Assembly: GCA_965243395.1 (NCBI GenBank)
Contig: CBDEUS010000001.1
Location: forward strand, 576,001 to 640,000
From: Gammaproteobacteria bacterium
GTDB lineage: Bacteria; Pseudomonadota; Gammaproteobacteria; UBA4575
Direction: 5' to 3'
DNA: 64,000 nt
In this document: in pieces, positions 28,575-47,603 of the stretch
Layout: each line of letters opens with the position of its first letter
How positions within the stretch are numbered: the stretch's first letter is position 1
Position numbers and translations under genes: made by a program
The notes under the pieces: model-generated
Databases searched by the model: none
The model's input: the letters and a program-made list of their open reading frames with translations, nothing else
What the model was told of the DNA's origin: nothing

Positions 28575-28586
28575 CTTTGGAATCTA

Positions 28587-28943: not shown

Positions 28944-28964
28944 ATAAAAGTAACGGTTAATTCA

Positions 28965-29429: not shown

Positions 29430-29443
29430 AAATTACAATCACT

Positions 29444-30649
29444 TTAAAACTCTACCGCCAATTGAGAAGTGATCGTGTTGCCACCGAATTCATCGGTACC
29501 GCCTTCCGAGGCGCTGTAATCCTCATCATGGGCCCATTCGATCGACAGTGCGGTTGCATCAAAAATCTCAGCTGATAAGCCACCGATTATACGTTCCTTC
29601 GGAAGCTCCAGTGCCACGGCTTCATCCGTACCCTGATAAGCCAGGGCTGCAGTCATCGGAATACCGCCTACATTAAAGCTATAGCCAACCTCAAAGTTAA
29701 ATGCTTCAGGTTCAGCACCGCCCGACTCAAATGCAAGCTCATCGGCCTCAAAGTCATCCGTGGCTTGGATGTATTCTGCAATCACATTGAAAGGTCCATA
29801 ACTGTACATAGCATCTATAGAAATGCCGCCTACATAATCACTATAGTCGACGGCTGCTGCATCAATATTATCCTGAATCACCTCTTGCAAAGTATCCGAA
29901 TCACCAATGTCATTGATGTACCCTAAGTTAATCGCAAAGTTTGAACCACTTTCACTCTCATGTGCATACCCAGCAAAGACCCCGAAGTTATCGATATCAC
30001 TATCGCCATCTTCAGACAGATCACCATTAAACACATATACACCACCTGTAAAACCATTGGACTCGATGCCGGCCAAGATAGAAGACTCGCGCGTCTCGGC
30101 AATCTCAAGCGTGAGAGGATCGGAGATAAGATTTGTTTCAAACGTGCCAAAGGGTTCATACATCAAACCGCTTTGTATAAACCAAGCACCCTCTGGAGGA
30201 GCGATGGTAATAACCGCGACATCAACTTCTAAATCGGTGTCATCTTCTTCAAACAATAGAGTGGTTTCTGCCGACACCCAATCATTTACTTGGGCTGCCA
30301 CCCCAAGTTCTGCTGTCGCTAATACAATATCACTGTTGCTATCGCCTTCATCGGGATCATTGTGAGAAGCTTCGACTTCCATTAGCCCACTAATTTCAAT
30401 ATTGCTAAACCAACCGGAATCCTTTTCATCAGATTTCACATTGGATACCAGTTCATTTATTTGTTGGGATTTTGCTTCAATAACTTGATTCTGTCTTTCA
30501 ATTACTGTGCTTTGTTGTAGAACCATGCGTTCAAGCTGTTCAAGACGGGCCTTTATTGCAGAAAGCTCATCCTCAATGCTCCCCGCAAAAGAAGGACTGC
30601 ATAAAATTGATATCAAAAATACAGATAGACAATTAAAAATTAATCTCAT
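29444..30649 (-). CDS. Outer-membrane porin, LbtU-like
   Basis: Signal peptide, N-terminal coiled coil, SGLMEVEA, PFG.FET..ISDPLTLE..ETRE and C-terminal QLAVEF. SD GAGGAGG. Confidence 0.75.
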   Translation of the reverse strand: MRLIFNCLSVFLISILCSPSFAGSIEDELSAIKARLEQLERMVLQQSTVIERQNQVIEAKSQQINELVSNVKSDEKDSGWFSNIEISGLMEVEASHNDPDEGDSNSDIVLATAELGVAAQVNDWVSAETTLLFEEDDTDLEVDVAVITIAPPEGAWFIQSGLMYEPFGTFETNLISDPLTLEIAETRESSILAGIESNGFTGGVYVFNGDLSEDGDSDIDNFGVFAGYAHESESGSNFAINLGYINDIGDSDTLQEVIQDNIDAAAVDYSDYVGGISIDAMYSYGPFNVIAEYIQATDDFEADELAFESGGAEPEAFNFEVGYSFNVGGIPMTAALAYQGTDEAVALELPKERIIGGLSAEIFDATALSIEWAHDEDYSASEGGTDEFGGNTITSQLAVEF

Positions 30650-30770
30650 AGAGTTCCTCCTCTTCTTATCATTTTTTTTAACTCTAATTTTTTTATAGAC
30701 AATAAAGCCCGTAGGTGATCGAAAGTACGATCACCTTGAGTATTTGTTTGCAGTAGTAAATTAAGTTACT

Positions 30771-31478
30771 TTAATTAGCAGTAGCACCAACAGAAGAATT
30801 TGCTGTACGTTCTGCAAAGCGATTAAAAAATAGTGCGCTCAAAGCTCCTAAAATTATCCAAAACAACGCATTTGTGGCTAATGTGGCTATATGAAAATTT
30901 GTTCTTAGTTCTTGCGGAGCTAATCCTTCATGCACTTCGGGTTGTGGTGCACCAAAAATATGTGGCAACGCAATTAACGCAATACCAAAAAGCTTTAAAA
31001 AAGGTTTAGGTTGAAACGCAAGTATCCATAATCCTGCTGCAGTTAAAATTACGGTCAAAACCCACCAGACTTGGCGCTGCTCTAACCCCGCAGCAGCATC
31101 TCCAGGAAGCTCTGGTGGTAGCCCAAAAGAAGGCGCTAGATTAAACACGAGCCATCCTGCAATGCCCCATAGAATTCCTTTTTGCCAAGTTATCGAACCG
31201 CGTAATGTGTATCCAACTACTAATAAAAGAGCAAAGCCAATTCCTATAACAACACTGCTAGATGCTGTAAAAAAGGTACGTTCAGCACCATCATCTGGTG
31301 CCCAAGCTTCTGCTTCTTCTTCACCATGTCCTGCGGCTGGCTCTTCTTCAGATACCTCGTAAGTTTCTGCTTCGAAAATCATCGGCACAACGCTGAAATG
31401 TTGAATGCCCGCAAGCACTAATCCAGCAATGACTCCAGAAAACAAAGCGCTTAAAAAAATTTGATTAAATAATTTCAT
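30771..31478 (-). CDS. cbtA: Cobalt transporter subunit CbtA
   Basis: P.I..AE.YE, W.P.DG.ER, AP..GLPPELPG, RQ.WW and PHIFGAP motifs. Confidence 0.9.
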   Translation of the reverse strand: MKLFNQIFLSALFSGVIAGLVLAGIQHFSVVPMIFEAETYEVSEEEPAAGHGEEEAEAWAPDDGAERTFFTASSSVVIGIGFALLLVVGYTLRGSITWQKGILWGIAGWLVFNLAPSFGLPPELPGDAAAGLEQRQVWWVLTVILTAAGLWILAFQPKPFLKLFGIALIALPHIFGAPQPEVHEGLAPQELRTNFHIATLATNALFWIILGALSALFFNRFAERTANSSVGATAN

Positions 31479-31502
31479 AATATTTGTGAATTGCTAAATT
31501 GA

Positions 31503-31700
31503 TTAGTGGCATGGAAAAACCATGCTATGGCGGATGTCATGTGCGGCATTATGTATAACTTCAGGGCTTGCAAATCCAATAACTGCAAGTATGAAAATGC
31601 TAACTAAAACAGCTGCAGAAATTGCATAGACAGATGCCCAGGGTAATACATGAGTATGATTCTGTTCAGTTTGACCAATATATTTATTAACAGTAGTCAC
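31503..31700 (-). CDS. cbtB: Cobalt transporter subunit CbtB (copy 1)
   Basis: TM helix plus HNAAHDIRHSMVFPCH. GTG at 31700 with SD GAGGAG. Confidence 0.88.
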   Translation of the reverse strand: MTTVNKYIGQTEQNHTHVLPWASVYAISAAVLVSIFILAVIGFASPEVIHNAAHDIRHSMVFPCH

Positions 31701-31773
31701 AAGTTTTCTCCTCGACTGAAATATTGTTATAAGACTGCACATTAGTAATTTAATGTATGCAGCCTATTTATTT

Positions 31774-31843
31774 GAAAAAGTTTATAGAATGTTATCTATA
31801 ATTCAAGACTATTTAATAACTATTTCAATAGTAATTTTCTATA
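31774..31843 (-). promoter_or_regulatory. Putative CynR-type operator and sigma70 promoter of cbtB-cbtA-porin
   Basis: Minus strand tATAG-aaaatta-CTAT...agtcTTGAAT-N16-TAAACT, with the same operator spacing as the scnB and porin sites. Confidence 0.55.
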
Positions 31844-32014
31844 GTAAAAAAATTACGTGAATCGATCCAATTCCTAATTTAAAACGACGAAAACCTATAT
31901 ATAGGTTCGATCTTAATCGTTGATTTGAGAAGATTAATTATAGATTTGCAATTTCAAGGTAGTTATTTTTCATAGCGAATAGCTATGAAACTATCGATGA
32001 AATGTGTAAATCAC

Positions 32015-32773
32015 TTACTTTATGAAATGAATTTTAGTCGCAATGATCCTGGAGTTTTTAATTTCCACATAACGGTAAGCTGGAGGAGGGTCAAGTAAAC
32101 ACTGCATTACTTCATTGTTCGTTTTAAATTGATGGCAAGTCGAAGGAGTTGAGATTAGATGAATATTTGATAGTTTTAGATTAATTTCCTGGTGGATGTG
32201 TCCAAACATCACCAAAACATTTTTTTCATGCTGTTTAAGTAATTTCATAAATTCATCTTGATTATGCAAACTTAACTTATCTAGCCATTTGCTATTTACT
32301 TTAATTGGTGGATGATGAATAGCAATAATAAATGTTTGTTTGCTTTTGCTATTTAATATTTTTTCTAGCTGATTCAGATTATATTCACTGATGAAACCAT
32401 GATGCTCATTATCGACACAACTATTTATTAAAACTAGCGTAGTCTCTCCAAAATTGATCATGTTAATAGAATGAGTGGGTGAGTTTGACACACACTTTTG
32501 CAATAGTTGTGGTGAATCATGATTGCCCGGGACACAATAGATTGGCACTTTAATTTCTTGAATAATTGATCTGAATATTGAGTAACTCGCGGCATTTCCT
32601 GTTTGGGAAATATCGCCTGTAACTAAGATAAAACTGATATCTGGATAGGTGCTTGTGCATGCAGATAATACGGATTGCAAGCTATTCTTGGTATTTATCC
32701 CGCGAAACTCGCCATTAGTATCATCTAATAAGTGTGTATCAGTGATCTGAATAAACTTTAAGTTTTCTGGCAT
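32015..32773 (-). CDS. CpdA/Icc-like metallophosphoesterase
   Basis: QITDTHL, TGDISQ, PGNHD, HHPP, FGHIHQ and TPSTCHQF motifs. Confidence 0.85.
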   Translation of the reverse strand: MPENLKFIQITDTHLLDDTNGEFRGINTKNSLQSVLSACTSTYPDISFILVTGDISQTGNAASYSIFRSIIQEIKVPIYCVPGNHDSPQLLQKCVSNSPTHSINMINFGETTLVLINSCVDNEHHGFISEYNLNQLEKILNSKSKQTFIIAIHHPPIKVNSKWLDKLSLHNQDEFMKLLKQHEKNVLVMFGHIHQEINLKLSNIHLISTPSTCHQFKTNNEVMQCLLDPPPAYRYVEIKNSRIIATKIHFIK

Positions 32774-32903
32774 TATTATGAAAATCTGTATATGTATGCA
32801 GATATTTAAATACTACGAATAAAAAACTCGTTGTGTATACTGTTTAGCTACACGATGAACTTAAATTGCTAGTATTGCAATTATATTAGGTGCAGATTTT
32901 TCT

Positions 32904-33170
32904 GTGAAAAATTTTATTGATTTTCTGGTAGATGCTATAACCAAAGGTACAAGGCCTTTTCGTATCCTGTTATTTGGCGGCATATTTATGGCTTTGATTC
33001 TCATGAATGTGCTTGCATTAATATTGAATATTGATACGAAAATAGGTGGAGATGTAAATCTCGAAAATATTTTGTTAATGATTTTTTCTTTATTTTTGGG
33101 GTTTGGAATTTCTTACAGCATTATTCATTTTGCTGATGCAAGTAAGCGAAAGCGTAACAGAAATAATTAG
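32904..33170 (+). CDS. Small two-TM membrane protein
   Basis: Two hydrophobic helices and a basic C-terminus. Confidence 0.5.
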   Translation: MKNFIDFLVDAITKGTRPFRILLFGGIFMALILMNVLALILNIDTKIGGDVNLENILLMIFSLFLGFGISYSIIHFADASKRKRNRNN

Positions 33171-33179
33171 TTTAATTGC

Positions 33180-33485
33180 TTATTTCCATACGAAAATATA
33201 TTCAGTATTGTCCACACTGGATTTATTAATACCAATTATTATTTCTGCGTCTTGAAGTTTTAGATTTTTGTTTATCGAAGAGCCGTAGAGAAGCTGCCGA
33301 AATTGTTTGTAATCTAAATTCTGATCAATGTAGTTATTTTCTTGTAAATACGAAAACAATTTCGGCAAAGTAAAATGCCATTTATCAAGCTCGAAGCTAA
33401 AGTAAGCGCTTTTTTTTAATTGATTGAGCTCTTTCTCATCTTTTTTTGCCACTCTTTGAAAAAAAGAAGTAAGGATTTTTTCCAT
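33180..33485 (-). CDS. Hypothetical protein downstream of cynS
   Basis: 101-aa ORF starting 18 nt after the cynS stop. Confidence 0.55.
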   Translation of the reverse strand: MEKILTSFFQRVAKKDEKELNQLKKSAYFSFELDKWHFTLPKLFSYLQENNYIDQNLDYKQFRQLLYGSSINKNLKLQDAEIIIGINKSSVDNTEYIFVWK

Positions 33486-33503
33486 AAGAGCTCAAAGATA
33501 AAT

Positions 33504-33947
33504 TTACCAATCTGTATATTTCAGGAATTTTCCATTCAATGTAATTACAACACGATCACCTTTAGGGTTCTCTTCTTTATCAATATCCATCGAAAAATCA
33601 ATTGCACTCATGATGCCATCGCCAAATTTTTCACCAATGATTTCTTTGATAGTTTCTCCATAAACTCCAACGATTTCGTGAAAACGATAAACAACAGGGT
33701 CAGTTGGAATCGCTTTATCCCAAGATTTATAAGGATATTCTTGTAAGCAAGTGCAAACATCTTCTCCAAGGTCTAATGCACTGCATATACTTTTTGCAAC
33801 TTCTTCTGTAGTGCTATTCATTCCAAAACAAGCAGATGTAACCCAGGTAGTACCTTTGCCTACTTTACTCGCTAAATCTTCCCAGGATATTCCTTTAGCT
33901 TTTCTTGCTGCAATAATTTGCTCTTTCATTTGTTCTTTATTCATCAA
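33504..33947 (-). CDS. cynS: Cyanate hydratase (cyanase)
   Basis: PTDPVVYRFHE, EKFGDGIMSAIDF and GDRVVITLNGKFL cyanase signatures. Confidence 0.96.
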   Translation of the reverse strand: MMNKEQMKEQIIAARKAKGISWEDLASKVGKGTTWVTSACFGMNSTTEEVAKSICSALDLGEDVCTCLQEYPYKSWDKAIPTDPVVYRFHEIVGVYGETIKEIIGEKFGDGIMSAIDFSMDIDKEENPKGDRVVITLNGKFLKYTDW

Positions 33948-34162
33948 TCTCTGCTCCCAGTTAATAAAATAATTTTTAATTATCTCAAGATATACAATTC
34001 AATCATTGTTTTATTTTCTATTCCAGAGAGTTGTGAAAAAAGAAAAAACATACGCGCATAGACAAAAAGCGATTGCACTTTAATCGTGCATTAAACTGAA
34101 AAAAACTATTATTAATCGTTATTTGCTATAAGCCTTATAACAAATAACAATACTGAATTAAC

Positions 34163-35098
34163 TTAATTTGAAATATCAAATTCATTTTGCAGCATACGTG
34201 CAGTTATATCTGAAGCTATTTCAATAAACGCGCGACTTGAAGGGCTTTTGTATCTGCCTTTATGCCAAATTAAGCTAACTGTTTTATGAGGGATTTCGGG
34301 TATAAGTACGATTGAGTATAAATTAGTGTTTTTACGGATAATTGTTTCTGGAAGTAAAGTAGCAAGCTTACCTAGTTGAACCATTTCAATAATTACACTT
34401 AATGAGTTTGTTTCAACGGATATGCGTGGTTCAATTTGATAAGTTTGGCAATAACGGTCGATATGTCTGCGAAGGGCAAAGTTGCTATTTAATAAAGCAA
34501 GTGACTCATTGCCAAAATCTAATGCACTCATTTCTCCTGAGTTATGACGTGGATGATTCTTGCCGACTGCCAAACATAAAGATTCTTCAAATAAAATATA
34601 ATTTTCGATATCTGTAGATTCATCTTCTTCTAGAGATGGACGTGTAAACGCAATGCCAATATCAATCTTGTCTTCGCCTACAGCTATTTCTAAATCATCT
34701 TGAGACATTTCCAAGGTACTGATTTTTATTCCCGGATGAAGATTGTTGAAATGGGATAGCAATGAGCACGTAAGGTGGTCTGTAATCGGTGTCCAACCTA
34801 AACGCAATGACCCTTTGCTTAAATTTTTTACATCATGAATAGCTCTTGTGCCTGCATCGAGTTCTCCCCACGCACGACGAGCATGGAATAAATACACCTC
34901 ACCCGCATCAGTAAGGCGAACCCCCCTCCCAGTTCGATCTATAAGTGGAGACTCAAGAATCTCTTCTAAATGTTTGATTTGCTGTGAGAGCGTTGGTTGA
35001 GAAACGTGCAACGCATCTGCAGCGCGTGTATAGCTACCTTGTTCAGCAATTGCGATTAGATACTGTAATGAGCGAGGAAAAACATTTCTTTGTTTCAT
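34163..35098 (-). CDS. cynR: LysR-type regulator, CynR-like
   Basis: R.LQY..AIAE.GSYTRAA.ALHVSQPTLSQQI, LTDAGE.Y and G.RAIHDV..LS.GSLR match CynR. Adjacent to cynS. Confidence 0.88.
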   Translation of the reverse strand: MKQRNVFPRSLQYLIAIAEQGSYTRAADALHVSQPTLSQQIKHLEEILESPLIDRTGRGVRLTDAGEVYLFHARRAWGELDAGTRAIHDVKNLSKGSLRLGWTPITDHLTCSLLSHFNNLHPGIKISTLEMSQDDLEIAVGEDKIDIGIAFTRPSLEEDESTDIENYILFEESLCLAVGKNHPRHNSGEMSALDFGNESLALLNSNFALRRHIDRYCQTYQIEPRISVETNSLSVIIEMVQLGKLATLLPETIIRKNTNLYSIVLIPEIPHKTVSLIWHKGRYKSPSSRAFIEIASDITARMLQNEFDISN

Positions 35099-35161
35099 AG
35101 TAATTTCTTATAGGATTTATAACTACAAAGACTTGGACTAATAATATACCACCATTAGACT
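35096..35161 (+). promoter_or_regulatory. Putative CynR operator and sigma70 promoter of the scnBAC operon, overlapping the cynR start codon
   Basis: cATAG-taatttc-TTAT-aggattt-ataactacaaagac-TTGGAC-N17-TAGACT. Confidence 0.65.
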
Positions 35162-35291
35162 TGTCATATAGCTAATCCTATATCCCTTAAGATAAGCATA
35201 TTAGCAAATACTAAAATATAAGGGATTGCTTAGGTTTGAGCGTGGGTTAGTGGAAATAATCGAACTATAAAAAATGAAGGAGTCCGGGATT

Positions 35292-35723
35292 ATGTCAGAA
35301 GCCACACGAAAACGTGTCTTAAATCATCTGGATTATGTAGGTTTATTGCAACCTGCGATTCACACCGAAACACATGCACCGTCACCTGATGAAGTAACGG
35401 ATGATCAATATCGTGCATACACTCGTCCATCACATGATATTGGTGGAGAACGCGATGTTTCAATTCAGTGGGAAGAGAAAGAAGAAGAGATTTGGGAGCA
35501 CAATACATTTGTGACATGTGAAGTGCTGGCATGGCGTGGTGTTTGGAATGCAGAGGAGAGACGTCGTCGTCAAAATGTGGATGTAGGTCAAACTCAATAT
35601 TTGGGACTTCCTTACTACGGCCGCTGGTTACTTACAGCTGCATTAATTTTAGTAGATAAGCAATTTGTTACCCTGACTGAATTACATGAAAAGATTGACG
35701 AGGTTAGTAAGCGCTATGAGTAA
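35292..35723 (+). CDS. scnB: Thiocyanate hydrolase beta subunit
   Basis: RAYTR..HD.GGE, EKEEEIWE.NTF.TCE.LAWRGVW.AEERRR and YYGRWLLTAA.ILVDKQFVTLTELH match Thiobacillus thioparus ScnB as recalled. SD AAGGAG. Confidence 0.93.
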   Translation: MSEATRKRVLNHLDYVGLLQPAIHTETHAPSPDEVTDDQYRAYTRPSHDIGGERDVSIQWEEKEEEIWEHNTFVTCEVLAWRGVWNAEERRRRQNVDVGQTQYLGLPYYGRWLLTAALILVDKQFVTLTELHEKIDEVSKRYE

Positions 35724-36084
35724 GCCACATTATGATTTAGAACATCACGTTAAAAAAGCAACTGGGATTGGAGATCCGCAATGCTTTAAAGGTGAAGCGG
35801 GCGATCCAAGATTTAAAGTTGGGGATAAAGTTAAAATCCGTGATCTACCCGATGTCTTTTACACACGTACACAAGCTTACACGCGAGGTTGCGAGGCTAC
35901 AGTCGTAAGACTCGTTTATGAAACTCCTCCGGCAGAAGATGAAGCTTGGGATAACACTGAAAATGTAGAGTGGATGTACAGTTTACTGTTCAAACAAAAA
36001 GATCTATGGCCCGAGTATGCGGACACATTTTCGCAGGACACTCTAGAAACTGAAATTCCGGAACATTGGTTGGAACCTGCATAG
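35716..36084 (+). CDS. scnA: Thiocyanate hydrolase alpha subunit
   Basis: ATGIGDPQCFKG, DLPD.FYTRT..YTRG and QKDLWPEY.DTF..DTLETEIPE motifs. ATG overlaps the scnB stop. Confidence 0.93.
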   Translation: MSKPHYDLEHHVKKATGIGDPQCFKGEAGDPRFKVGDKVKIRDLPDVFYTRTQAYTRGCEATVVRLVYETPPAEDEAWDNTENVEWMYSLLFKQKDLWPEYADTFSQDTLETEIPEHWLEPA

Positions 36085-36134
36085 CATTACAAGGTTTATC
36101 AAAGTTTAAATAAATACTATAAGAGGAATAAAAC

Positions 36135-36830
36135 ATGGCGGATAAACATAAAGCTGCACCAATGGTAGATGAAGTCAGTGAGTTTGAAATCCTTGAAATC
36201 GCGGTTCGCGAACTTGCAATTGAAAAAGGTCTGTTTACTCAGGATGACCATAATGCCTGGACAGACTACATGCATACTTTAAGTCCGATCCCTGCCGCAC
36301 GCTTGGTGGCTAAAGCGTGGCTAGATCCAGAATATAAAAAACTTGCGATTGAGGACGGAGTTAAAGCGAGTTTAGAAGTAGGTATCGATTGGGTTAAGCA
36401 AATGCCTACTCAATTCGGTACTCCAAGTGACTACTGTAATTTACGCGTTATGGCAGACACACCAACCTTAAAACATGTAGTAGTGTGTACTTTATGTTCT
36501 TGCTACCCACGTCCAATTTTAGGTCAGTCACCTGAATGGTATCGCACACCTAATTATCGTAGACGCTTAGTAAGGTGGCCTAGGCAAGTGCTATCAGAAT
36601 TTGGCTTACAAATACCTGATGATGTTGAAGTGCGTGTAGTTGATTCTAATCAGAAAACTCGTTATATCGTTATGCCCGAGCGACCTGAAGGAACGGATGG
36701 TTGGACAGAAGATCAGCTAACTGAAATTGTTACACGCGATTGTTTAATCGGTGTGGCACTACCCAAACCAGGCAAGACTGCTAACGACCCTCGCCCGGTT
36801 CGAAAAGCACTTAAACCTTATGGCCACTAA
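36135..36830 (+). CDS. scnC: Thiocyanate hydrolase gamma subunit (cobalt-binding)
   Basis: Nitrile-hydratase-type Co ligand motif VCTLCSCY, plus APMV.EVS.FEILE, TQFGTPSDYCNLRV and RRRLVRWPRQVL. Confidence 0.95.
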   Translation: MADKHKAAPMVDEVSEFEILEIAVRELAIEKGLFTQDDHNAWTDYMHTLSPIPAARLVAKAWLDPEYKKLAIEDGVKASLEVGIDWVKQMPTQFGTPSDYCNLRVMADTPTLKHVVVCTLCSCYPRPILGQSPEWYRTPNYRRRLVRWPRQVLSEFGLQIPDDVEVRVVDSNQKTRYIVMPERPEGTDGWTEDQLTEIVTRDCLIGVALPKPGKTANDPRPVRKALKPYGH

Positions 36831-36836
36831 TTAAGA

Positions 36837-37238
36837 ATGACTTCAATTAACCCGGAAAAAATCGAACTCGATGAGGAGATGTCCCAGCGCAATTTGGATA
36901 ATTCTCCTATTGCTGTGTTAGAAGAAATTAAACAAGAAGGTAAAGGACGCACTTGGCAAGATCTCAGTAAAAAATGGGGTGTAGAGAACCCCGACCCACC
37001 TTGGAAAGTTACATTAGAAGCGACTTGTGATGTGTTATCGGAAGTGTCATGCGCTCTGCCAGGCATAGAAAGGCGTTGGGAAGAAGATGATCTCGTCGAA
37101 GAACTTTATAAAGATGTTCCTTATCCTGAACGACAATTATTAGCCTTGGTGCATTCTATGATTCGTCGAGGATTGATTGATGAAGAAGATTTAAGAAAAC
37201 ATATGAAGGTGGTAGATAAGCGTTTGCATATGGCATAA
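36837..37238 (+). CDS. Thiocyanate hydrolase activator (P15K-like)
   Basis: ~15 kDa gene directly after scnC, with ERR..ED.L....Y...PYPERQL.AL...GLIDEE.L resembling the nitrile hydratase beta/activator N-domain. Confidence 0.75.
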   Translation: MTSINPEKIELDEEMSQRNLDNSPIAVLEEIKQEGKGRTWQDLSKKWGVENPDPPWKVTLEATCDVLSEVSCALPGIERRWEEDDLVEELYKDVPYPERQLLALVHSMIRRGLIDEEDLRKHMKVVDKRLHMA

Positions 37239-37318
37239 AAAATTCAAAATAAAAAAAGCTATTTAAATAGCTAAAGAATAAATTAAATATTTCAAAGTAT
37301 TTAGAAGCAGAGGAGCAG

Positions 37319-37681
37319 ATGTTAAAAATTTTTATGAAATCTTCTTGGGGGAGCGACGACCCAACGCGTGCTGCTATGGTTTTAGGTCATAGTCATGCCT
37401 TAGCAAGTGCAGGTCATAACGTGCGTATTTTTTTGTTAGGCGAAGCAGTTTGTTTAGCTCGAGAAGTTGTGCGTGAAAATTTGAAGCCTGTGGGTTGGCC
37501 ATCTGTTGCTGAGCAATGGAAAAATGCTTTAGACGAAGGGGTGCGAATAGAATTTTGTGGTGCTTGCTCTAGAGCCAGAGGTATTACTGAAGAAGATATG
37601 GCTAATGCCGGAGGACAGCCTGGTAATCCGGATACTTTTGTGGAAGACACTGAATGGGCAGATAGGATTATTGCGGAGTAA
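37319..37681 (+). CDS. DsrE/DsrF-like protein
   Basis: V.IFLLGEAV.LA and CGACSRARGI motifs. SD GAGGAG. Confidence 0.8.
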   Translation: MLKIFMKSSWGSDDPTRAAMVLGHSHALASAGHNVRIFLLGEAVCLAREVVRENLKPVGWPSVAEQWKNALDEGVRIEFCGACSRARGITEEDMANAGGQPGNPDTFVEDTEWADRIIAE

Positions 37682-37846
37682 CTCTCTTATTAATATGTAT
37701 GAAATTAAAAATAAGGAATACATTTTTAACATGGAGGAAATAAGTTGCCTATTTTTCATAATATAAAAGGAAGTTTAATTTCGTTAACAAATGCTGAACA
37801 AAATGCAAAGCATTTTGGAACTACATTTACAGATAAGGAAACAAAC

Positions 37847-38638
37847 ATGGCGGAGCGCAATGGCGTACATATTAAAGTAAAGGATTTAACTCATAGATAT
37901 GATGCAAAAAGCCCACTTACTTTCGACAAAGTAAATGTAGAAGCAGAACCAGGAGAATCAATTGTAATTATTGGGCGTTCTGGTTGTGGTAAATCAACAT
38001 TACTACACATTATCGCGGGATTGCTTGGTGGTTATACTGGAACCAACCAGATAAATAACAAAGATGTTAAAGCTGCATCATCAAAATGGATCATGATGTT
38101 CCAAGCACCACATCTATTTCCTTGGATGACGGTAGAACAAAATGTTGGGACTGGATTACGTTTTGCAGGTTGGTCGAAAGATAGGATTTCTGAACGTGTA
38201 AAAGATGCAATTAGTTTAGTGAATATGGAAGAGTTTGCGCATAAAAATACGCAAGACTTATCAGGTGGACAACAACAACGTGTGGCTTTAGCACGGTCAC
38301 TGGTGATGGAGCCAGAAATGTTGCTATTGGATGAGCCATTTTCAGCTTTGGATGCGTTTACACGTGCTGCCTTGCAAAAAGACGTGCGCGCGATATCAAA
38401 GCAACTTGGATTTAACATTGTCATGGTGACGCATGATATTGATGAAGCTGTAATCATGGCCGATCGAGCGATGATCATGGCAGGTTCGCCGGGGAAAATG
38501 ACGCACGACTTAAAGATAGATCTTCCGGATCCTCGTGATCGTGAAGATCCTGAAGTACAAAAGTTACGAGCACACGTAATGCAAGAGTTTCAGGAAGCTG
38601 CAGGCTCGCCCAAGGGCAGCGAAACAGAGGAGAGTTAA
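37847..38638 (+). CDS. Nitrate/sulfonate/cyanate-type ABC ATP-binding protein
   Basis: GRSGCGKST, LFPW.TV..NV, LSGGQQQR, LLLDEPFSALD and VTHDIDEA. ATG at 37847 with SD AAGGA. Confidence 0.9.
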   Translation: MAERNGVHIKVKDLTHRYDAKSPLTFDKVNVEAEPGESIVIIGRSGCGKSTLLHIIAGLLGGYTGTNQINNKDVKAASSKWIMMFQAPHLFPWMTVEQNVGTGLRFAGWSKDRISERVKDAISLVNMEEFAHKNTQDLSGGQQQRVALARSLVMEPEMLLLDEPFSALDAFTRAALQKDVRAISKQLGFNIVMVTHDIDEAVIMADRAMIMAGSPGKMTHDLKIDLPDPRDREDPEVQKLRAHVMQEFQEAAGSPKGSETEES

Positions 38639-38745
38639 GAAAGTGCAGTTTCTACAGTCGAAAAGGTCGACAAACAATGCCTAGATACGCGGTCTAGGTA
38701 TTTTGAAGAGAAAACTACGAGAGTAACGATGAGAGGAATTCCAAT

Positions 38746-40029
38746 ATGAAGAAAATTTATCAAAAACATGGTGAGGGGATTGTTCATGATGATCCTAATC
38801 TCGCCATTGAGTATGACCCTTTGTTTAGAGGTGCTCTAGGCACGGGCTTGAACCGGCGTGAGCTGTTACAAGTGGGTGCTGCATTAGGTACTGCGGGGAT
38901 GTCAATGCCGGCATTTTCCGCAAAGAAAAAGTGGGACCCAGTTATTAAGATTGGTTACATCCCAATTACAGATGCGGCAGCATTATTAATTGCGCATGAT
39001 CAAGGTCTTTTCAAAGCTGAAGGTATTGATTCCAAAAAACCAACACTGATTCGTGGATGGTCGCCTTTAGTAGAAGCTTTTGCTGCACATCGTTTCAACC
39101 TTACCCATATGTTGATCCCAATTCCTGTGTGGATGAGATACAACAATAAATATCCGATTAAAATTACCGCATGGGACCATACAAATGGTTCCGCAATTTT
39201 GGTTGGAAAGAATAGTGGTATTAATGAACCAAAAGATTTTGGTGGTAAGCAATTTGCAGTACCTTACTGGTACTCAATTCATAACATTGTTTCTCAGCGA
39301 ATCATGAAGGCAGCTGGTATCAAACCAGTAATTAAACCTCAATCTGCCAAGCTTGCTGATGACGAATGTAACTTCCTGGTTCTTGCACCACCTTCAATGC
39401 CGCCTGCGCTTGCCGCCGGAACCATTGATGGCTATTGCGTAGCAGAACCTTTTAATGCATTAGGTGAATTAAAAGCGGGTGGTAAAGTCTTGCGCTTCAC
39501 GGGTGATGCATGGAAAGGGCATCCATGTTGTGTTGTGGTAATGCATGAAGACGATGCAATGGATCCAGATCGTGCTGCATGGGCACAAGGCATACATAAT
39601 GCTGTGGTTAAAGCACAAATTATGCTTGCTGAAAATCGTGAATCCATGGCTGAACTGCTCTCTAAGGATGGTAAAGGCTATTTACCAGTACCTAAAGAAG
39701 TTGTGAAGCGAGCAATGATGTTCTACGACCCAGCTTATTACAACAATCCGCTTGCAATTAAGCATCCTGAATGGGATCAAAATCGGATTGATTTCCAAGC
39801 ATGGCCTTATCGTTCAGCAACGGAACTTGTTGTAAATGATTTGAAAGAAACTGTTGTCACAGGTGATGCTAAATTCCTAGACACACTTACTCCACAACAT
39901 GTTGCAGATGACCTAGTCAATTACGACTTTGTTAAAACATCTTTGGAATCAAATCCTAAATGGAGAAACGATAAGAGTGTTCCACAGGAAGGCGACCCCT
40001 ATGTTCGCACGGAGACATTTGTACTTTAA
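38746..40029 (+). CDS. NrtA/CmpA/CynA-family oxyanion-binding protein, Tat-exported
   Basis: NRRELLQ twin-arginine motif, IGYIPITDAA.L, DGYCVAEPFN and W.GHPCC motifs. Confidence 0.85.
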   Translation: MKKIYQKHGEGIVHDDPNLAIEYDPLFRGALGTGLNRRELLQVGAALGTAGMSMPAFSAKKKWDPVIKIGYIPITDAAALLIAHDQGLFKAEGIDSKKPTLIRGWSPLVEAFAAHRFNLTHMLIPIPVWMRYNNKYPIKITAWDHTNGSAILVGKNSGINEPKDFGGKQFAVPYWYSIHNIVSQRIMKAAGIKPVIKPQSAKLADDECNFLVLAPPSMPPALAAGTIDGYCVAEPFNALGELKAGGKVLRFTGDAWKGHPCCVVVMHEDDAMDPDRAAWAQGIHNAVVKAQIMLAENRESMAELLSKDGKGYLPVPKEVVKRAMMFYDPAYYNNPLAIKHPEWDQNRIDFQAWPYRSATELVVNDLKETVVTGDAKFLDTLTPQHVADDLVNYDFVKTSLESNPKWRNDKSVPQEGDPYVRTETFVL

Positions 40030-40869
40030 ATGAGCAATGGAGATGCAAAAACTGAATTGATTGATGCTGGGGCAGGAGGCGTACCCAACCCACAACAATC
40101 ACTAGCTAAATCCTTTGGAACAAGTTTGTTCTACTGGGCGGCTGGCTTATTTATTCTCTTCGTACTCTGGTGGATTGGGGGTTATCTCATTGAGATAAAC
40201 CCCAATACCACAAATTTTAAGGATTTTGGACCCATACCAACGTTCCAAGCCTTTCCAGAGTTATGGGGTGAAGGAAAAATACAAGCTGCAGTCTATACAA
40301 GTGGGTTTCGTCTAGGTGCAGGATTACTGATTGCTATAATTGTTGGAATTCCAATTGGTATTTTACTTGGCAGAAGTAAAGTATTTCGTGATTTAAGTAA
40401 TTCTCCGTTTCAGTTAATTCGTATGATTAGCCCGCTATCTTGGGAGCCAATTGCGGTAATTGTTTTTGCTACCTGGAATGGCGCAATCGTATTCTTAATC
40501 TCAATTGCGGCAGTTTGGCCCATTGTATTTGCCACCGCAGCAGGACTTGCAAAAGTAGATCCTGCTTGGTTTAAAGTCGCAAAAAATCTTGGTGCAAAAC
40601 CGTGGCATATGGTTACTCAAATAATTTTACCTGCTATCATGTTTGACATCTTGACAGGTGTTCGTCTCGCACTTGGTGTGGGATGGATTGTTTTAGTACC
40701 TGCAGAATTTTTAGGGGTGACCTCAGGTTTGGGCTATTCTATTGCAGATGCACGTGAGACTTTATCGTATGACCAGCTAACGGCTATGGTGTTAGTCATA
40801 GGTATCATGGGTTATATATTAGATAGCTCGTGTGCAATGCTTATTAAAAAATATAGTTGGCATCACTAG
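40030..40869 (+). CDS. Nitrate/sulfonate-type ABC permease
   Basis: GIPIGILLG, R.ISPL.W.P, A..LGA, LPA....I.TG.R.ALG.GW..LVPAE motifs. Confidence 0.9.
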   Translation: MSNGDAKTELIDAGAGGVPNPQQSLAKSFGTSLFYWAAGLFILFVLWWIGGYLIEINPNTTNFKDFGPIPTFQAFPELWGEGKIQAAVYTSGFRLGAGLLIAIIVGIPIGILLGRSKVFRDLSNSPFQLIRMISPLSWEPIAVIVFATWNGAIVFLISIAAVWPIVFATAAGLAKVDPAWFKVAKNLGAKPWHMVTQIILPAIMFDILTGVRLALGVGWIVLVPAEFLGVTSGLGYSIADARETLSYDQLTAMVLVIGIMGYILDSSCAMLIKKYSWHH

Positions 40870-40921
40870 TAATGCTAACTAATTAAAAATTGATTTAAAT
40901 TTCTATCTAGGAGAAAAAACT

Positions 40922-41116
40922 ATGCAAACTCAAACAACTACACAAAGCACTATACAAGTTGCTTCGCGTACCTCAGCATTATCGAAACCGCTACAAATTG
41001 CTTGTGCAATTTTGCTTGGTTCTGTAATTCTTTATGGTGTAGGGTTTATGAATTCTGCAGCTGTGCACAATGCAGCGCATGATATTCGTCATACGCAAGC
41101 ATTCCCTTGCCACTGA
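40922..41116 (+). CDS. cbtB: Cobalt transporter subunit CbtB (copy 2)
   Basis: TM helix plus HNAAHDIRHTQAFPCH. SD AGGAG. Confidence 0.85.
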   Translation: MQTQTTTQSTIQVASRTSALSKPLQIACAILLGSVILYGVGFMNSAAVHNAAHDIRHTQAFPCH

Positions 41117-41141
41117 TGCGTAATTAGTTAAGTATGTGAGT

Positions 41142-41164
41142 GTGATGCTTTGGATAAGCATCAC
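41142..41164. terminator. Stem-loop between convergent genes
   Basis: GTGATGCTT-TGGAT-AAGCATCAC. Confidence 0.5.
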
Positions 41165-41239
41165 TACCTTATTTTATTCTATTGAATGGTAGTAAGCGCT
41201 ACTATAAGTTGAATACTTAACTAAAGTTGGTAACTAAAA

Positions 41240-42217
41240 TTATTCTAAATTTGTCCAGGTAGGGAATTTTTCTGTAAATTCGTTAAGAACTTTTAGATGT
41301 TCTTCAACAAATTGGGCTTGTTGAAATACATCTGCTGCAACCTTATCAGGGAATGATGTGAGCTTATACACTCTTTCTACGCCAATTTGCGAGGCAAAAT
41401 AACGTAATTCAGAGAGTATCAATGAACTTAAATCAAAAACATCTGATGTGTTTATAGGTACTTGTACATCATTGCCTAAATCCAACATGTCTATACCAGA
41501 ATCCTTAGCTATTTCCTGAATGGTGCGGAAATTTCGAAGCATAATATTGTAAGAATCAATTGGCGCGGTGCCCGCTTGATAGGCAGGCAAAGTTGGTGCG
41601 TTTAAACTCCATACAGGAGCAATTTTATCAAGAATATCAACAATATATGCGTTGGCTTGTTCGACAATAGCATAAACATCGCCTTGTTCAATGGGTTGCT
41701 CCAATATTAGATTTAACTGCCGATTAGCCTGAACAATTTGCTTGAATACATCCGTAAGAGATTTTTTAGTGTCTTTAGTGACATTTATTTGTTCTGCTGT
41801 ATCTTCCCTAATACTTAAACCTGCTTTCGCACAACGAATTTGGCTCCATGCATCATTAACAATTTCATAAACGTCTTTTGCAGTTATGTTTTTTGGTATT
41901 GAGTACTGGGCTGCAAGAGGTGGTGCAAAAAGTGATTGAATTGTTTCGTGACAAAGTCTTCCAGCCTTTTGGCGTAAAGTGAGTGCTTGAAAATAGACTT
42001 CTCGAGGATAAACATTTTCAACTGGAATACTTTCTCGAGCATCAATACTGGCTTGCTTATGTTTTCGAATAAGTTCTATTTCATGTTGTACCTGCTCAAC
42101 CATTTGATAGGCGAGAATAGGGCTGAAGTTATTTGTTGCACTTATTCCTTCGCATGGAATAAAAAATAATGTGATGGACAGAATGGCGTAGAATTTGAGA
42201 TTGTTATTGTAAAGCAC
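41240..42217 (-). CDS. Exported hypothetical helical-repeat protein
   Basis: Signal-peptide-like N-terminus and a recurring (P/T/A)xD/E-V-Y/F motif. Confidence 0.65.
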   Translation of the reverse strand: MLYNNNLKFYAILSITLFFIPCEGISATNNFSPILAYQMVEQVQHEIELIRKHKQASIDARESIPVENVYPREVYFQALTLRQKAGRLCHETIQSLFAPPLAAQYSIPKNITAKDVYEIVNDAWSQIRCAKAGLSIREDTAEQINVTKDTKKSLTDVFKQIVQANRQLNLILEQPIEQGDVYAIVEQANAYIVDILDKIAPVWSLNAPTLPAYQAGTAPIDSYNIMLRNFRTIQEIAKDSGIDMLDLGNDVQVPINTSDVFDLSSLILSELRYFASQIGVERVYKLTSFPDKVAADVFQQAQFVEEHLKVLNEFTEKFPTWTNLE

Positions 42218-42613
42218 ATTTATTCCTTATCTTACTCAAAGTCTTTTCGCAACAAGTATACGAATTGTAAATTTTCAAGCCTGTATTTTTAGCAAGTAAC
42301 ATAATTTTACCAGTGCGCAATTAATGGCGCACTTAGTATTTTTTGATAAAAAATATTTAAATTTGTTATTAGTAATAATTTTATAGCCCTTATTACACTT
42401 CTAGAATTCTAAAATATAACTTAATTTTGAAATATTCCGTTTAATTGAAATAGTTAGGTTTTTTTGATTTAGCGTCTATGTTTAGGTTTTATTTAGTTTT
42501 TAAAAGTCTTGGAATTAAGGTAGAGGCGTGTCTAATCAATAAGGATATTAAACGTATAAAATCGAAAAAACCTATTTTAAGTCTGTTGCAATGCATGTGC
42601 AGACAACAGGCAT

Positions 42614-42653
42614 AAAAAAACCAGGACTGTGTTTTAATAACAGTCCTGGTTTT
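42614..42653 (-). terminator. Intrinsic terminator of the porin gene
   Basis: Plus strand AAAAAAACCAGGACTG...CAGTCCTGGTTTT gives a hairpin plus U7 on the minus strand. Confidence 0.8.
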
Positions 42654-42668
42654 ATATTTTTAATTGAC

Positions 42669-44228
42669 TTATTTATATCTGTACTGGAAGAACACCCATA
42701 TCTTTTCAGTGTCTACTCCAAAGTCATCAGCATCATAATCAGCGTACTTGATTGCACCAAGTAAGCCATTTACGCCAAACAAATTAGGTTTACCCCATAA
42801 GAAGTTAATCTCATCACCGTAATCGTCAGGACCAAAATCATCGTCTTCTGCTTCATAGTCATGATATGCAAGGACGATTTTATTTTTACCAATGTAATCG
42901 CCAAAGAGTCCTAAAATTTGTAGGGTGATACTAGTATCCTCAAGACCTCCTACTGGTGTAGCGGAACCGCCAGGAGCTGCAACAAACACATCGGCCCATC
43001 CATTGAAAGCATGCACAGTAGCAAGAGGTGTTTGTACGGCATTTACACCATTGCCTTCTAAGACTTCACGACCCACTCTGATTTGATATGTAGGTTCACC
43101 AACTGGTAAAAATCCAATATTATCGACCCGAGTTCCTCCCCATTGAAGGCCTAATTCGAAGTTGTAGTAGTCGTTATCATCAAAATCTGCAACTTCTGCA
43201 CCGGTAACAGGGCTTTCGCCTGCATCATCAGTTGGATCTTGATTGGCCCATTCAAACTCAGTTTGTAGATCAAACGAATCACCAATTTCATGTCTACCCA
43301 CAAAACGTAACCCTAATGTGTCTGAATCAAATACATTGCCAGTTATAAATGGTGGGGCAATACCATTACCTTCTGGAAAAGGTGTTCTAGGGTTGTCATT
43401 AAAATCAAGTAAATAACCATAGGCAGTTAATTTGCCAAATTCTGGGAATGTGTATGTAAGGTTGATTAAATGGCCGTCATCAAATTTCCATTCGTTAAAG
43501 ATAGAATTCTCGCCGAATAAACGCTTAACTTTCTTAACATATGAGTAGGAAATGCCAAGATTTTTAATAGAGTTGTTATCAAACCTAAATGCATTCATGG
43601 AGACATTGTTATTACGCCATATCACATCCCCCACCCAGCGGTGATTATCGTAAATTATAGTTTGACGTCCTAGTTTAAACGACGTGTTGCCATCACAGAA
43701 TCCGGGAGTATTCGGGCAACTACCTGTACCACTGCGCCAGCCTATATAGGCTTCATTGATTTCACCAAAATCATTATCAGGAATGATGGCATGTCCCTCC
43801 GCATTTCTGTTACCAACGATTGGATTTGGCCCTGGGCCTAGTGGCGGAATCCGGAAATCATCATCAAGATTGAGTGAGTTATCGTTCCAATTCTTTGCAG
43901 CTTCTAATTCCAAACGCCCATAAAAGCCATGATAACGGGCAGTGGTAAATCCGAATTGTATTCTTGTACTGATAAGATCGGCATTTTCTGCACTAGATAA
44001 AACAGTTCCGTCTCGATCTTCATCCACATTTTCCAAACGGGTTCTGATCCAAAAATCTTCATTACCTTCAGTAAACATAGCCCCTAAACTTCCAACTTCA
44101 GGATAAAGTTTATTGTGCGGTGTAAAATGTGCATTGGGGACATCAGGGAAACCTACGGCTCCCACACTTTGTGCCAGTAAGAAAGTAACTACTGCTATGA
44201 GTAGTGAGAGTGGTTTTAAATAGACCAT
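42669..44228 (-). CDS. Alginate-export (AlgE)-like outer-membrane beta-barrel
   Basis: R.R.E.VD, EINEAY, KLGRQ.I..DN.R.VG.V.WR.N, QTPLAT.HAFNGWAD.F and KYADYDAD motifs. ATG at 44228 with SD GGAGGAG. Confidence 0.78.
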   Translation of the reverse strand: MVYLKPLSLLIAVVTFLLAQSVGAVGFPDVPNAHFTPHNKLYPEVGSLGAMFTEGNEDFWIRTRLENVDEDRDGTVLSSAENADLISTRIQFGFTTARYHGFYGRLELEAAKNWNDNSLNLDDDFRIPPLGPGPNPIVGNRNAEGHAIIPDNDFGEINEAYIGWRSGTGSCPNTPGFCDGNTSFKLGRQTIIYDNHRWVGDVIWRNNNVSMNAFRFDNNSIKNLGISYSYVKKVKRLFGENSIFNEWKFDDGHLINLTYTFPEFGKLTAYGYLLDFNDNPRTPFPEGNGIAPPFITGNVFDSDTLGLRFVGRHEIGDSFDLQTEFEWANQDPTDDAGESPVTGAEVADFDDNDYYNFELGLQWGGTRVDNIGFLPVGEPTYQIRVGREVLEGNGVNAVQTPLATVHAFNGWADVFVAAPGGSATPVGGLEDTSITLQILGLFGDYIGKNKIVLAYHDYEAEDDDFGPDDYGDEINFLWGKPNLFGVNGLLGAIKYADYDADDFGVDTEKIWVFFQYRYK

Positions 44229-44359
44229 GGTAGCTTGCTCCTCCCTTGAAAGAATTAGACCGGTCGCGCTAGGTATTCCAGTCACACAACTAAGTTATGC
44301 TTAGTTTTTATATTTCTTATATGCAAATTTTATAGGTTTTTAACACCTACTCACTTAGC

Positions 44360-44426
44360 AATATAAAAGAATGGTCGTTTACCTTCCAAGACTTTGTTGC
44401 TATTGAATCTATAGGTAAATGCTATG
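44360..44426 (-). promoter_or_regulatory. Putative CynR operator and sigma70 promoter of the porin gene
   Basis: Minus strand cATAG-catttac-CTAT-agattca-atagcaacaaagtc-TTGGAA-N18-TATATT. Confidence 0.65.
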
Positions 44427-44747
44427 GGAAAACGAAGTTTTATGAAATTTCATTGTCCTTTACTACAAACTTAAGGGTTAATGAGATAAATAAGCTTGTA
44501 AAGACATAAATTTTGAGCAGTTTAAGTGTGCTTTTCTAAAATTACCTGCAATTTGAAGTTAATAAGCACAATGAGCGGTTAATCTGAGTATGAAAATGTC
44601 TCATTTTGGGGTATACCACATTTATTTTAGGGTTATCTTCTACACGCTCTAAAACAAGCTAGTTGTATTTCTGCTCTACATGGTTTTATAGCAGTGCAGT
44701 TAATTCCTTACCAATTGTTTTAATCTTTATCTAAAGCAAATCATTTA

Positions 44748-45353
44748 TTACTGTAATTCAATCTCATTTTCTGTCAGCTCTTGTTTCAGAGTTGCTAAAT
44801 TTTTTTCCAGTAAGACCATGGTTGTATTTTTGAATTCGATAATTTTTTCATCAAACTTGTTTGCTATATAAACGGTGTCGTTTGTGGGACCTCTTTTATT
44901 GAGCTTTTCAATTACAAGCTCAGAATATTTATAAAAACGAGTTACGCCAGCTAAAATTTCAGGGGGCGTAGTTAATAATGCTGGCGAAGATTTTAGGGAG
45001 TCCCAAACGAAGTACTCGGGGTGGTTTGACCATTGGCTATTTTTATTATAGCGGGCACCACCTTTGCGATAGTTGTTTATGATTTCTTCATATACGCTTA
45101 TATTGTAATTCAGTTCATTACGTAACGAAGTACGAACATAATAACTGTCACGATCGGCTCTTACTGACTCAAATTGAATTGCCGTTTCGAGTGCCGCATG
45201 TGCGGCTAAATAAACACCAAGTACAGTAGAAAAGACAACAAAAAAGTTACCTATCCAAAATTCCCAATTTGCTTTGCCCAGTCTCGCTTTTGCTCTGGTG
45301 AAAAATTTCGTTGGTGAGAGCAATGCTATTAAAGCCATAATTCCTTCTCCCAA
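44748..45353 (-). CDS. Hypothetical membrane-anchored protein
   Basis: One TM segment (STVLGVYLAA) followed by a helical soluble domain. Exact start uncertain. Confidence 0.6.
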   Translation of the reverse strand: MGEGIMALIALLSPTKFFTRAKARLGKANWEFWIGNFFVVFSTVLGVYLAAHAALETAIQFESVRADRDSYYVRTSLRNELNYNISVYEEIINNYRKGGARYNKNSQWSNHPEYFVWDSLKSSPALLTTPPEILAGVTRFYKYSELVIEKLNKRGPTNDTVYIANKFDEKIIEFKNTTMVLLEKNLATLKQELTENEIELQ

Positions 45354-45453
45354 TGTATGGAATATTGTTTATATCTAAATATAAAAATTTAGGTCATGCT
45401 TTAATCAATATTTGCTATGTTTTAATACGACGAGCTGTAAGCTATAGTCGTTC

Positions 45454-45565
<112 letters not shown>

Positions 45566-45601
45566 CTATTATACTGAACAGATTATCAAAATAGCCCCAG
45601 A

Positions 45602-47197: not shown

Positions 47198-47268
47198 GTG
47201 AACAGAAAAACACAATGACAAAATTGCATATTAAATTTTGTATAAATTTAGAATTTTAAGGTGAAAAA

Positions 47269-47592: not shown

Positions 47593-47603
47593 AAATTTTA
47601 TTT

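Follow-up and report, generated by a model that had tools for sequence, protein, structure and literature searches.

Gene content of the locus

The DNA analyzed here, referred to as the window, is a stretch of 64 kb with 38.2% GC from a Gammaproteobacteria bacterium (contig CBDEUS010000001.1, positions 576,001 to 640,000). It holds an operon for thiocyanate hydrolase (scnBAC) and an ATP-binding cassette (ABC) transporter, a divergently oriented gene for a LysR-type regulator (cynR), a cyanase gene (cynS), a gene for a putative outer membrane channel, and the cobalt import genes cbtBA (Table 1). In a preliminary description of the sequence, it was proposed that one 42-bp module, combining a LysR operator with a -35 box, is repeated in front of scnB, the porin gene and cbtB, and that the CynR homologue uses it to coactivate the hydrolase, the porin and cobalt uptake. 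The copies in front of these three genes are named a, b and c, respectively. The analysis presented here suggests that the module is quite probably a LysR operator of the CynR type joined to a weak sigma-70 promoter, which heads the scnBAC-ABC and porin units, the copy in front of cbtBA being degenerate.

Domain searches showed that the scnBAC products match the NHase_beta_N and NHase_beta_C domains, carried by separate open reading frames (ORFs), and the NHase_alpha domain. ScnC scored 379.9 bits with TIGR03887 (thiocyanate hydrolase gamma; cut-off 291.45), and ScnBAC is assigned to the thiocyanate hydrolases. The cynR product contains HTH_1 and LysR_substrate domains, scored 347.5 bits with NF008416, the NCBI equivalog model for CynR (cut-off 277), and shares 41% identity over 302 aa with Escherichia coli CynR; its closest structures in the PDB, 2hxr and 3hfu, are of the CynR effector domain. 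As first described, the scnB copy of the module overlaps the start of cynR, the CAT at 35096–35098 being the start codon of the minus-strand ORF and lying inside the first half-site. The scnB ORF starts with ATG at 35274, and a GGAG is found 9 nt before an in-frame ATG at 35292, which is a possible true start.

Table 1. Positions of modules and genes in the window (IR1, first inverted repeat)
Feature	Positions	Strand	Remarks
Module a (predicted scnB promoter)	35096..35139	+	IR1 ATAG-N7-TTAT 35097-35111; second-site ATAA 35119-35122; -35 TTGGAC 35133-35138
-10-like TAGACT, predicted scnB promoter	35156..35161	+	17 nt past the -35
Module b (predicted porin promoter)	44383..44426	-	IR1 ATAG-N7-CTAT 44425-44411; -35 TTGGAA 44389-44384; -10 TATATT 44365-44360
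Module c (predicted cbtB promoter), degenerate	31800..31843	-	IR1 ATAG-N7-CTAT 31842-31828; -35 TTGAAT 31806-31801; -10 TAAACT 31784-31779
Palindrome c2, CATAG-N7-CTATG	31971..31987		IR1 only; 144 bp upstream of c, just past the stop of a CpdA-like gene
cynR	34163..35098	-	LysR-type regulator, CynR orthologue
cynS	33504..33947	-	Cyanase; just downstream of cynR
scnBAC	35274..36830	+	Thiocyanate hydrolase subunits: scnB 35274-35723, scnA 35686-36084, scnC 36135-36830
Rest of scn operon	36837..40869	+	Conserved 133-aa ORF, DsrE-like protein, NitT/TauT-type ABC transporter
ABC transporter genes	37745-38638, 38746-40029, 40030-40869	+	ATPase, binding protein and permease, respectively
Porin gene	42669..44285	-	Secreted protein of ~518-538 aa, probably an AlgE-like outer membrane channel
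cbtB, cbtA and LbtU-family porin gene	29444..31742	-	cbtB 31503-31742 (possibly from GTG 31700), cbtA 30771-31478, LbtU-family porin 29444-30649; possibly one unit

Two full copies of the module in the window

The three 42-mers were found exactly as quoted in the preliminary description, at 35096–35137 (+), 44426–44385 (-) and 31843–31802 (-). Their ungapped identities are 31/42 (a and b), 26/42 (a and c) and 24/42 (b and c), and 20 alignment columns are the same in all three. When a was compared with every 42-mer on both strands of the window, the best non-self matches were b (31) and c (26), followed by matches of 25. The proposed -35 and -10 hexamers with spacers of 16–18 nt were likewise read from the sequence, as TTGGAC-17-TAGACT in a, TTGGAA-18-TATATT in b and TTGAAT-16-TAAACT in c.

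To test the copies against chance, a weight matrix was built from one scnB-proximal site from each of 46 related loci, with the window and its near-twin locus L001 excluded. Scanning of the window (~128,000 positions) gave 38.3 bits for a, 35.4 bits for b and 3.6 bits for c, with -3.4 bits for the next best position. The top scores of 100 Markov-1 random windows had a mean of -1.1 (standard deviation 4.5), a 95th percentile of 6.9 and a maximum of 11.7. Modules a and b are far beyond chance, and b is an independent confirmation because no porin site entered the training of the matrix. The claim of one module at three units was therefore borne out for two real copies, while the cbtB copy turned out to be degenerate. 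Both full copies are the same as their L001 counterparts at 42 of 44 bases, and in the case of b the sequence farther upstream diverges.

Occurrence of the module in related loci

A search by ScnC protein alignment was used to fetch 80 related loci (L001–L080; 37–63% GC, 1.37 Mb in total, stretches of at most 20.7 kb). The scn gene order is kept in most of them, a CynR homologue was found in 71 of the 80, and in 48 it diverges from scnB within 900 nt. The motif common to these cynR-scnB intergenic regions is CATAGnnAnntCCTATaGGntTgATAAnAAnAAaGTCTTgGAcT. The search of orthologous loci recommended at the outset was carried out as a weight-matrix scan, which showed that the module recurs in the cynR-scnB intergenic regions of dozens of genomes; 189 matches in the 80 loci reached 10 bits or more and 175 reached 20 bits or more, and none did so when the sequences were read backwards. 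In the extended consensus of 167 distinct modules, a -10-like block appears at the matching distance.

The placement of the modules was counted as a match of at least 20 bits, on the same strand and at most 450 nt upstream of a gene. By this measure, a module precedes scnB in 72 of 78 copies and the porin gene in 15 of 15 homologues, in agreement with the proposal that the hydrolase and the porin belong to the CynR regulon. Lower counts were obtained for cbtB (6/13), cbtA (5/28), cynS (6/40) and a 101-aa ORF (1/22). No module was counted before cynR, scnC, the 133-aa ORF, dsrE, the three ABC genes, cpdA, the 325-aa and 201-aa ORFs or dnaX; for the 133-aa ORF, dsrE, the ABC ATPase, the binding protein and the permease, the counts were 0/76, 0/11, 0/73, 0/70 and 0/100 copies, respectively.

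The regulator gene is tied to the module by position. Among 74 CynR copies, 66 diverge from a module within 400 nt and 50 have their start codon inside the first bases of the opposite-strand module, as in the window, an arrangement that fits the autoregulation suggested previously. Modules that hold a cynR start begin with C, because the ATG on the opposite strand requires it, and those without cynR mostly begin with T. The hexamer CTAATA follows directly after the -35 box in 19 of 43 modules holding a cynR start, compared with 15 of 93 without cynR.

Sixty strong matches had no mapped downstream gene, and the downstream ORFs of 23 of these were scanned against Pfam. The products were identified as HdrD-like CCG/4Fe-4S proteins (seven), CbiM (six), OprD- or OprB-type porins (three), HupE/UreJ (two), and NicO, DUF4198, a methyltransferase and a PhzF-like protein (one each); one ORF had no Pfam match. 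CbiM, HupE, NicO and DUF4198 were counted as non-orthologous cobalt importers. Three modules were found in Thiobacillus thioparus DSM 505 (L069), one each at the head of an HdrD-like gene (module at 4760–4803), a cbiM-cynS-methyltransferase unit and scnB; the module of the second unit contains the cynR start. The order of these units matches the gene neighbourhood given in the accessible part of PMC5328954. Modules from the same locus resemble each other more than modules from different loci at positions 20–37 (likeness 0.63 compared with 0.55), a difference reached in none of 1000 permutations.

HdrD-like proteins, with two 4Fe-4S motifs and CCG domains, were observed behind strong modules in L016, L041, L045, L057, L058, L069, L070 and L073. 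In T. thioparus, the HdrD-like ORF continues into an outer membrane domain of the Phenol_MetA_deg type.

Resemblance to the CynR operator of E. coli

According to the accessible portions of PMC5002191, E. coli CynR gives a 60-bp DNase I footprint (Lamblin and Fuchs 1994, as cited there); the paper, which also gives a phylogenetic footprint, places 15-bp inverted repeats of the form ATAA-n7-TTAT at three centres, -66, -44 and -34 relative to the start of cynTSX. When the scn-trained matrix was applied to 3.5 kb spanning cynR-cynT of E. coli K-12, the footprinted operator scored 28.1 bits, the next best position reaching -15.4. The alignment with the module is free of gaps. In both systems an orthologous regulator is encoded divergently from its target, the first site is a 15-bp inverted repeat of nearly the same sequence (ATAG-N7-CTAT in the module) with its centre near -66 or, as counted here from the predicted -10 boxes, near -65, 22 bp separate this palindrome from the ATAA/ATCA of the second site, and the predicted -10 is of the same kind, the TAGTCT of the cynT promoter lying one base off the aligned position of TAGACT in a. 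Since the matrix picks out the E. coli operator and the regulator passes the CynR model, the module is probably a CynR-type LysR operator joined to a weak sigma-70 promoter; a and b fall within this operator type, and c, at 3.6 bits, does not. The two systems differ in their targets, which are cynTSX in E. coli, and thiocyanate hydrolase, an ABC transporter and an outer membrane channel here, with cobalt importers in relatives. They also differ in that E. coli has one such promoter and several separate promoters bear the module here, and in that the cynR start codon ends 8 nt before the module in E. coli and lies inside the first half-site here. The effector is possibly another difference, as SCN- may take that role here.

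LysR activators commonly bind one site for recognition around -65 and another for activation around -35, with dimers that slide (model described in PMC5002191). The module would share this architecture: a T-N11-A palindrome would be centred near -65, as counted from the predicted -10 boxes or from the E. coli start used in PMC5002191, a weaker second site lies next to the predicted -35, the core promoter seems weak, and the regulator gene is divergent and probably autoregulated. The module differs only in its set of targets and in the use of the complete cassette at more than one promoter. The fit to the LysR recognition site and the second site next to the -35, both noted in the preliminary description, are supported by their conservation in dozens of cynR-scnB intergenic regions and by the gap-free alignment with the E. 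coli operator.

Proposed mechanism

A mode of binding, activation and autorepression can be inferred from how the module is conserved and placed, from its likeness to the E. coli operator and from the regulator being a CynR orthologue. The module of ~44 bp would consist of a high-affinity palindrome, ATAG-N7-CTAT, centred near -65, a second and less symmetric site, ATAA-N7-GTCT, 22 bp beyond the palindrome, and a -35 of the TTGGAC type with a poor -10 predicted at 17–18 nt. If it works like E. coli CynR and further members of the LysR family, the CynR orthologue would most likely bind as a tetramer to the palindrome and the downstream site, and an effector, presumably a linear pseudohalide anion (thiocyanate and/or cyanate), would shift the downstream dimer off the -35 and let this dimer help RNA polymerase at the weak promoter. 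Bound CynR would also cover the -10 and leader of cynR and repress it, and the cynR and scnB promoters seem to overlap back to back, with a predicted cynR -10, TATTAG, 18 nt after a -35, ATGACA, on the minus strand (the reverse of TGTCAT after TAGACT). In this genome, the two units with a full module are the scnBAC-ABC transporter operon and the gene for the probable AlgE-like outer membrane channel.

Several observations weigh against this interpretation. The count for scnB is partly circular, as the 46 training sites are among the 72; in addition, six of the 78 scnB copies have no module of at least 20 bits, and no CynR homologue was seen in the stretch fetched for nine of the 80 loci. The greater likeness of modules within a locus could partly reflect shared base composition and relatedness. 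A consensus promoter scan with a threshold of 9 of 12 matches listed only b, and the place of a and c below that threshold fits dependence on an activator but proves no promoter. Concerning the background frequency of the motif, which had been raised as a caveat, modules a and b in full stand far above random windows, but ATAG-N7-CTAT by itself shows no clear enrichment in the window, where 8 strand-hits (4 palindromic sites) compare with 2.54 ± 2.35 and a maximum of 10 in 100 shuffles. A generic repeat finder (seed 8, minimum 24 nt; positions 29000–46000) did not give the pair a-b among the 25 of 31 inverted pairs listed; the longest exact words common to a and b are 6 nt, and the output of the finder was mostly chance pairs. 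The remaining points concern c, which ranks third in the window but falls below the 95th percentile of random windows and is not significant window-wide. Its equivalent in L001 scored -4.3 bits, with ATAG changed to ATTG and a diverged middle part, and nothing above -15.2 bits was found before cbtB in L002.

The cbtB copy and cobalt import

CbtA was identified by PF09490 and by TIGR02458 (240.5 bits compared with 182.9), and CbtB by Pfam PF09489 (54.9 compared with 27); with NCBIfam TIGR02459, CbtB reached 55.9, below 64.4. The two are assigned to CbtAB, and the LbtU-family porin gene that follows matches NF033652. Cobalt-type nitrile hydratase clusters are known to include their own cobalt importer, e.g., nhlF in Rhodococcus, and the scn locus is similar in that a cobalt enzyme of the nitrile hydratase family is encoded beside cobalt uptake genes. 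In T. thioparus, a cyanase gene and a cobalt transporter gene upstream of scn have been described previously (PMC5328954, accessible part). In related genomes, the cobalt importers are firm members of the putative CynR regulon, as judged by their modules. Strong modules (28.6–47.6 bits) precede cbtB in L003, L013, L015, L018, L044 and L046, and in L003 and L018 cynR diverges from cbtB and not from scnB. Furthermore, a CbtA homologue is found at the end of the scn operon itself in 18 of the 80 loci. Together with the modules before importer genes, this links cobalt import and the hydrolase in many lineages, with importers and wiring that vary. What sets these loci apart from the known clusters is the shared operator at separate promoters and an importer that varies with the lineage (CbtAB, CbiM, HupE, NicO).

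In the window, the evidence for control of cbtBA by CynR is divided. A serious alternative, although one that we hold to be somewhat the less probable, is that there are only two functional copies of the module and that c is a chance likeness or a decayed relic, the cbtBA promoter being constitutive or regulated in another way. The score of c lies inside the range of the random-window maxima, its middle part, where the second site is expected, is off consensus, and in L001 one half-site is mutated, whereas both promoter hexamers and the cbtB leader are well conserved. Against this, c is the third best of all positions scanned and coincides exactly with a -35/-10 pair before a cobalt importer gene of a kind that belongs to the regulon elsewhere. 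Within the 272-nt cbtB upstream region only, c is notable, a score of at least 3.6 bits having a per-position probability of 3.3e-7 in 3 million simulated intergenic-like positions. Upstream of c lies a second palindrome of the IR1 type, c2, which is the third-best site for the IR1 sub-matrix in the window (11.9 bits), behind b and a, and whose CATAG-N7-CTAT is kept in L001 amid diverged flanks; no -35 was found at the distance used in the module. We consider c to be a weak or decaying CynR site and not a full copy, and lean towards the view that it still responds to CynR; control of cbtBA by CynR is plausible here, if weak or decaying. The proposed inclusion of cobalt uptake in the regulon was supported in part, by the relatives, with strong modules before cbtB or before other cobalt importers; the window copy has a low score, a lost half-site in L001 and no counterpart in L002.

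A 12-bp perfect palindrome, CCTATATATAGG, occurs at 31894–31905 between the two IR1-type sites of the cbtB upstream region and is partly kept in L001. The cbtB leader contains a stem-loop at 31733–31765 (-); the 86-nt leader folds with -17.5 kcal/mol (z -2.5), 3 of 200 shuffles fold as well, and the stem is largely conserved in L001 and has no Rfam match. An Rfam search at E <= 1 over 28000–48000 gave a signal recognition particle (SRP) RNA only, and no cobalamin riboswitch or other known RNA was detected in the cbtB, scnB or porin leaders.

Effector and regulator

The preliminary description suggested that the regulator may sense thiocyanate rather than cyanate. The thiocyanate hydrolase operon as the invariant target favours SCN- as the effector, and OCN- stays a candidate because cyanase is often part of the regulon. 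It is a substantial but lesser possibility that CynR binds the module in response to cyanate and not thiocyanate, in a regulon for scavenging cyanate and nitrogen of which the hydrolase is an incidental member. In favour of this, the regulator is orthologous to CynR, cyanase is encoded next to cynR here and is preceded by its own module or placed in a module-headed operon in other genomes, and E. coli CynR is reported to respond to cyanate and azide (PMC5002191; bioRxiv 10.1101/2020.07.08.193060; accessible portions of both). However, the hydrolase operon is the first and unvarying target, a module of its own precedes just 6 of 40 cynS copies, and thiocyanate hydrolase yields carbonyl sulfide and ammonia, not cyanate (PMC5328954, in part). 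In addition, treatment with SCN- induced cynT in E. coli, although contamination with OCN- was not excluded by the authors (PMC12096828, as far as its text is accessible).

A further candidate copy, before cynS at 34109–34152 (-), was rejected as a working module. It scored -3.4 bits, precedes a terminator-like hairpin at 34090–34074, has no -35 and is not kept in L001. The site may be a relic of a strong cynS module such as that found at a similar distance in L015.

That a transcription factor other than the neighbouring CynR homologue recognizes the module is improbable. The nine loci without a CynR homologue in the fetched stretch mostly keep the scnB module, as this alternative would predict, but the stretches are at most 20.7 kb long, so cynR may lie elsewhere in these genomes; in L046 the gene was found 8 kb upstream of scnB. 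Moreover, the motif agrees with the operator footprinted for E. coli CynR, and cynR starts are embedded in it in the majority of copies counted above. Although whole promoter-plus-operator units recur before unrelated genes, the idea that the copies are a duplicated promoter or small mobile repeat with no operator function is very unlikely and was rejected, because conservation is position-specific across genomes of 37–63% GC (ATAG, CCTAT, AT at 24–25 and a TTGGA-type box are fixed, T39 and G41 above all, and the positions in between vary), the likeness of a and b ends within ~60 nt, and no terminal repeats lie around them.

A wider proposal can be put forward only tentatively. The CynR orthologue may be a thiocyanate sensor and the 44-bp cassette a portable unit that has repeatedly drawn genes into a complete regulon for thiocyanate catabolism in gamma- and betaproteobacteria, including symbionts of lucinid clams and Thiobacillus thioparus, recruiting a dedicated AlgE-like anion channel of the outer membrane, non-orthologous cobalt importers (CbtAB, CbiM, HupE, NicO) to supply the cobalt enzyme, cyanase and HdrD-like iron-sulfur proteins. 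If so, the weak cbtB site in the window would show a target in the course of being lost or retuned.

Relation to previous work

In the literature library that was searched, no paper connects CynR with thiocyanate hydrolase, and a search combining thiocyanate hydrolase with LysR returned only unrelated work. The accessible text of PMC5328954, which treats the genetics of the thiocyanate hydrolase pathway and the scn neighbourhoods of Thiobacillus thioparus and Thioalkalivibrio thiocyanodenitrificans, names no LysR/CynR or other regulator and no operator. The regulator family, the type of operator and the mechanism are known, and the set of targets and the use at several promoters are new; as the mechanism is textbook LysR biology, a specialist would be moderately surprised. 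Thiocyanate is both a common pollutant from industry and a natural source of nitrogen and sulfur. The conserved CynR-type operator offers a testable regulator, a hypothesis for the effector and a predicted regulon, which names an outer membrane channel and an ABC importer as candidate parts of the uptake route and in which supply of the cobalt cofactor would be wired to induction of the enzyme. The module and its regulator may also provide ready parts for a thiocyanate biosensor, and a module of at least 30 bits could serve as a marker for finding genes of the pathway in uncultured bacteria.

The porin gene and other features

The porin ORF (538 aa) had no Pfam match at 0.001. Weak matches to Alginate_exp (PF13372) were obtained for 14 of 14 aligned family members (best 4.1e-7), the window protein scoring 14.3 bits, under the gathering cut-off of 25.2; three of the 14 members matched the Opr porin model, and a profile search of the PDB with the family gave nothing at E <= 1. 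The homologues have N-termini resembling signal peptides. We regard "AlgE-like outer membrane channel" as a fair but unproven label for this sequence family. As listed, the ORF begins with GTG at 44285. The methionine at residue 20 is invariant compared with 13 homologues and is followed by a stretch resembling a signal peptide, which places the probable true start near 44228. A perfect palindrome of 12 bp, ATGAAATTTCAT, is located at 44442–44453, 15 nt upstream of the porin module and inside a block conserved with L001, and may be a site for a second factor.

An additional ATAG-N7-CTAT at 10681–10695, 51 nt before a gene for an AMP-binding enzyme (10746–12626), scored 8.2 bits with the IR1 sub-matrix, has no second site or -35, and was set aside as probably due to chance. 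The window also encodes a 1506-aa hybrid protein at 5722–10242 (+), with histidine kinase, Hpt, GGDEF and EAL domains and three receiver stretches. The bacterial small SRP RNA (RF00169, 63.6 bits) is located at 45463–45559 (+), between the 201-aa ORF and dnaX.

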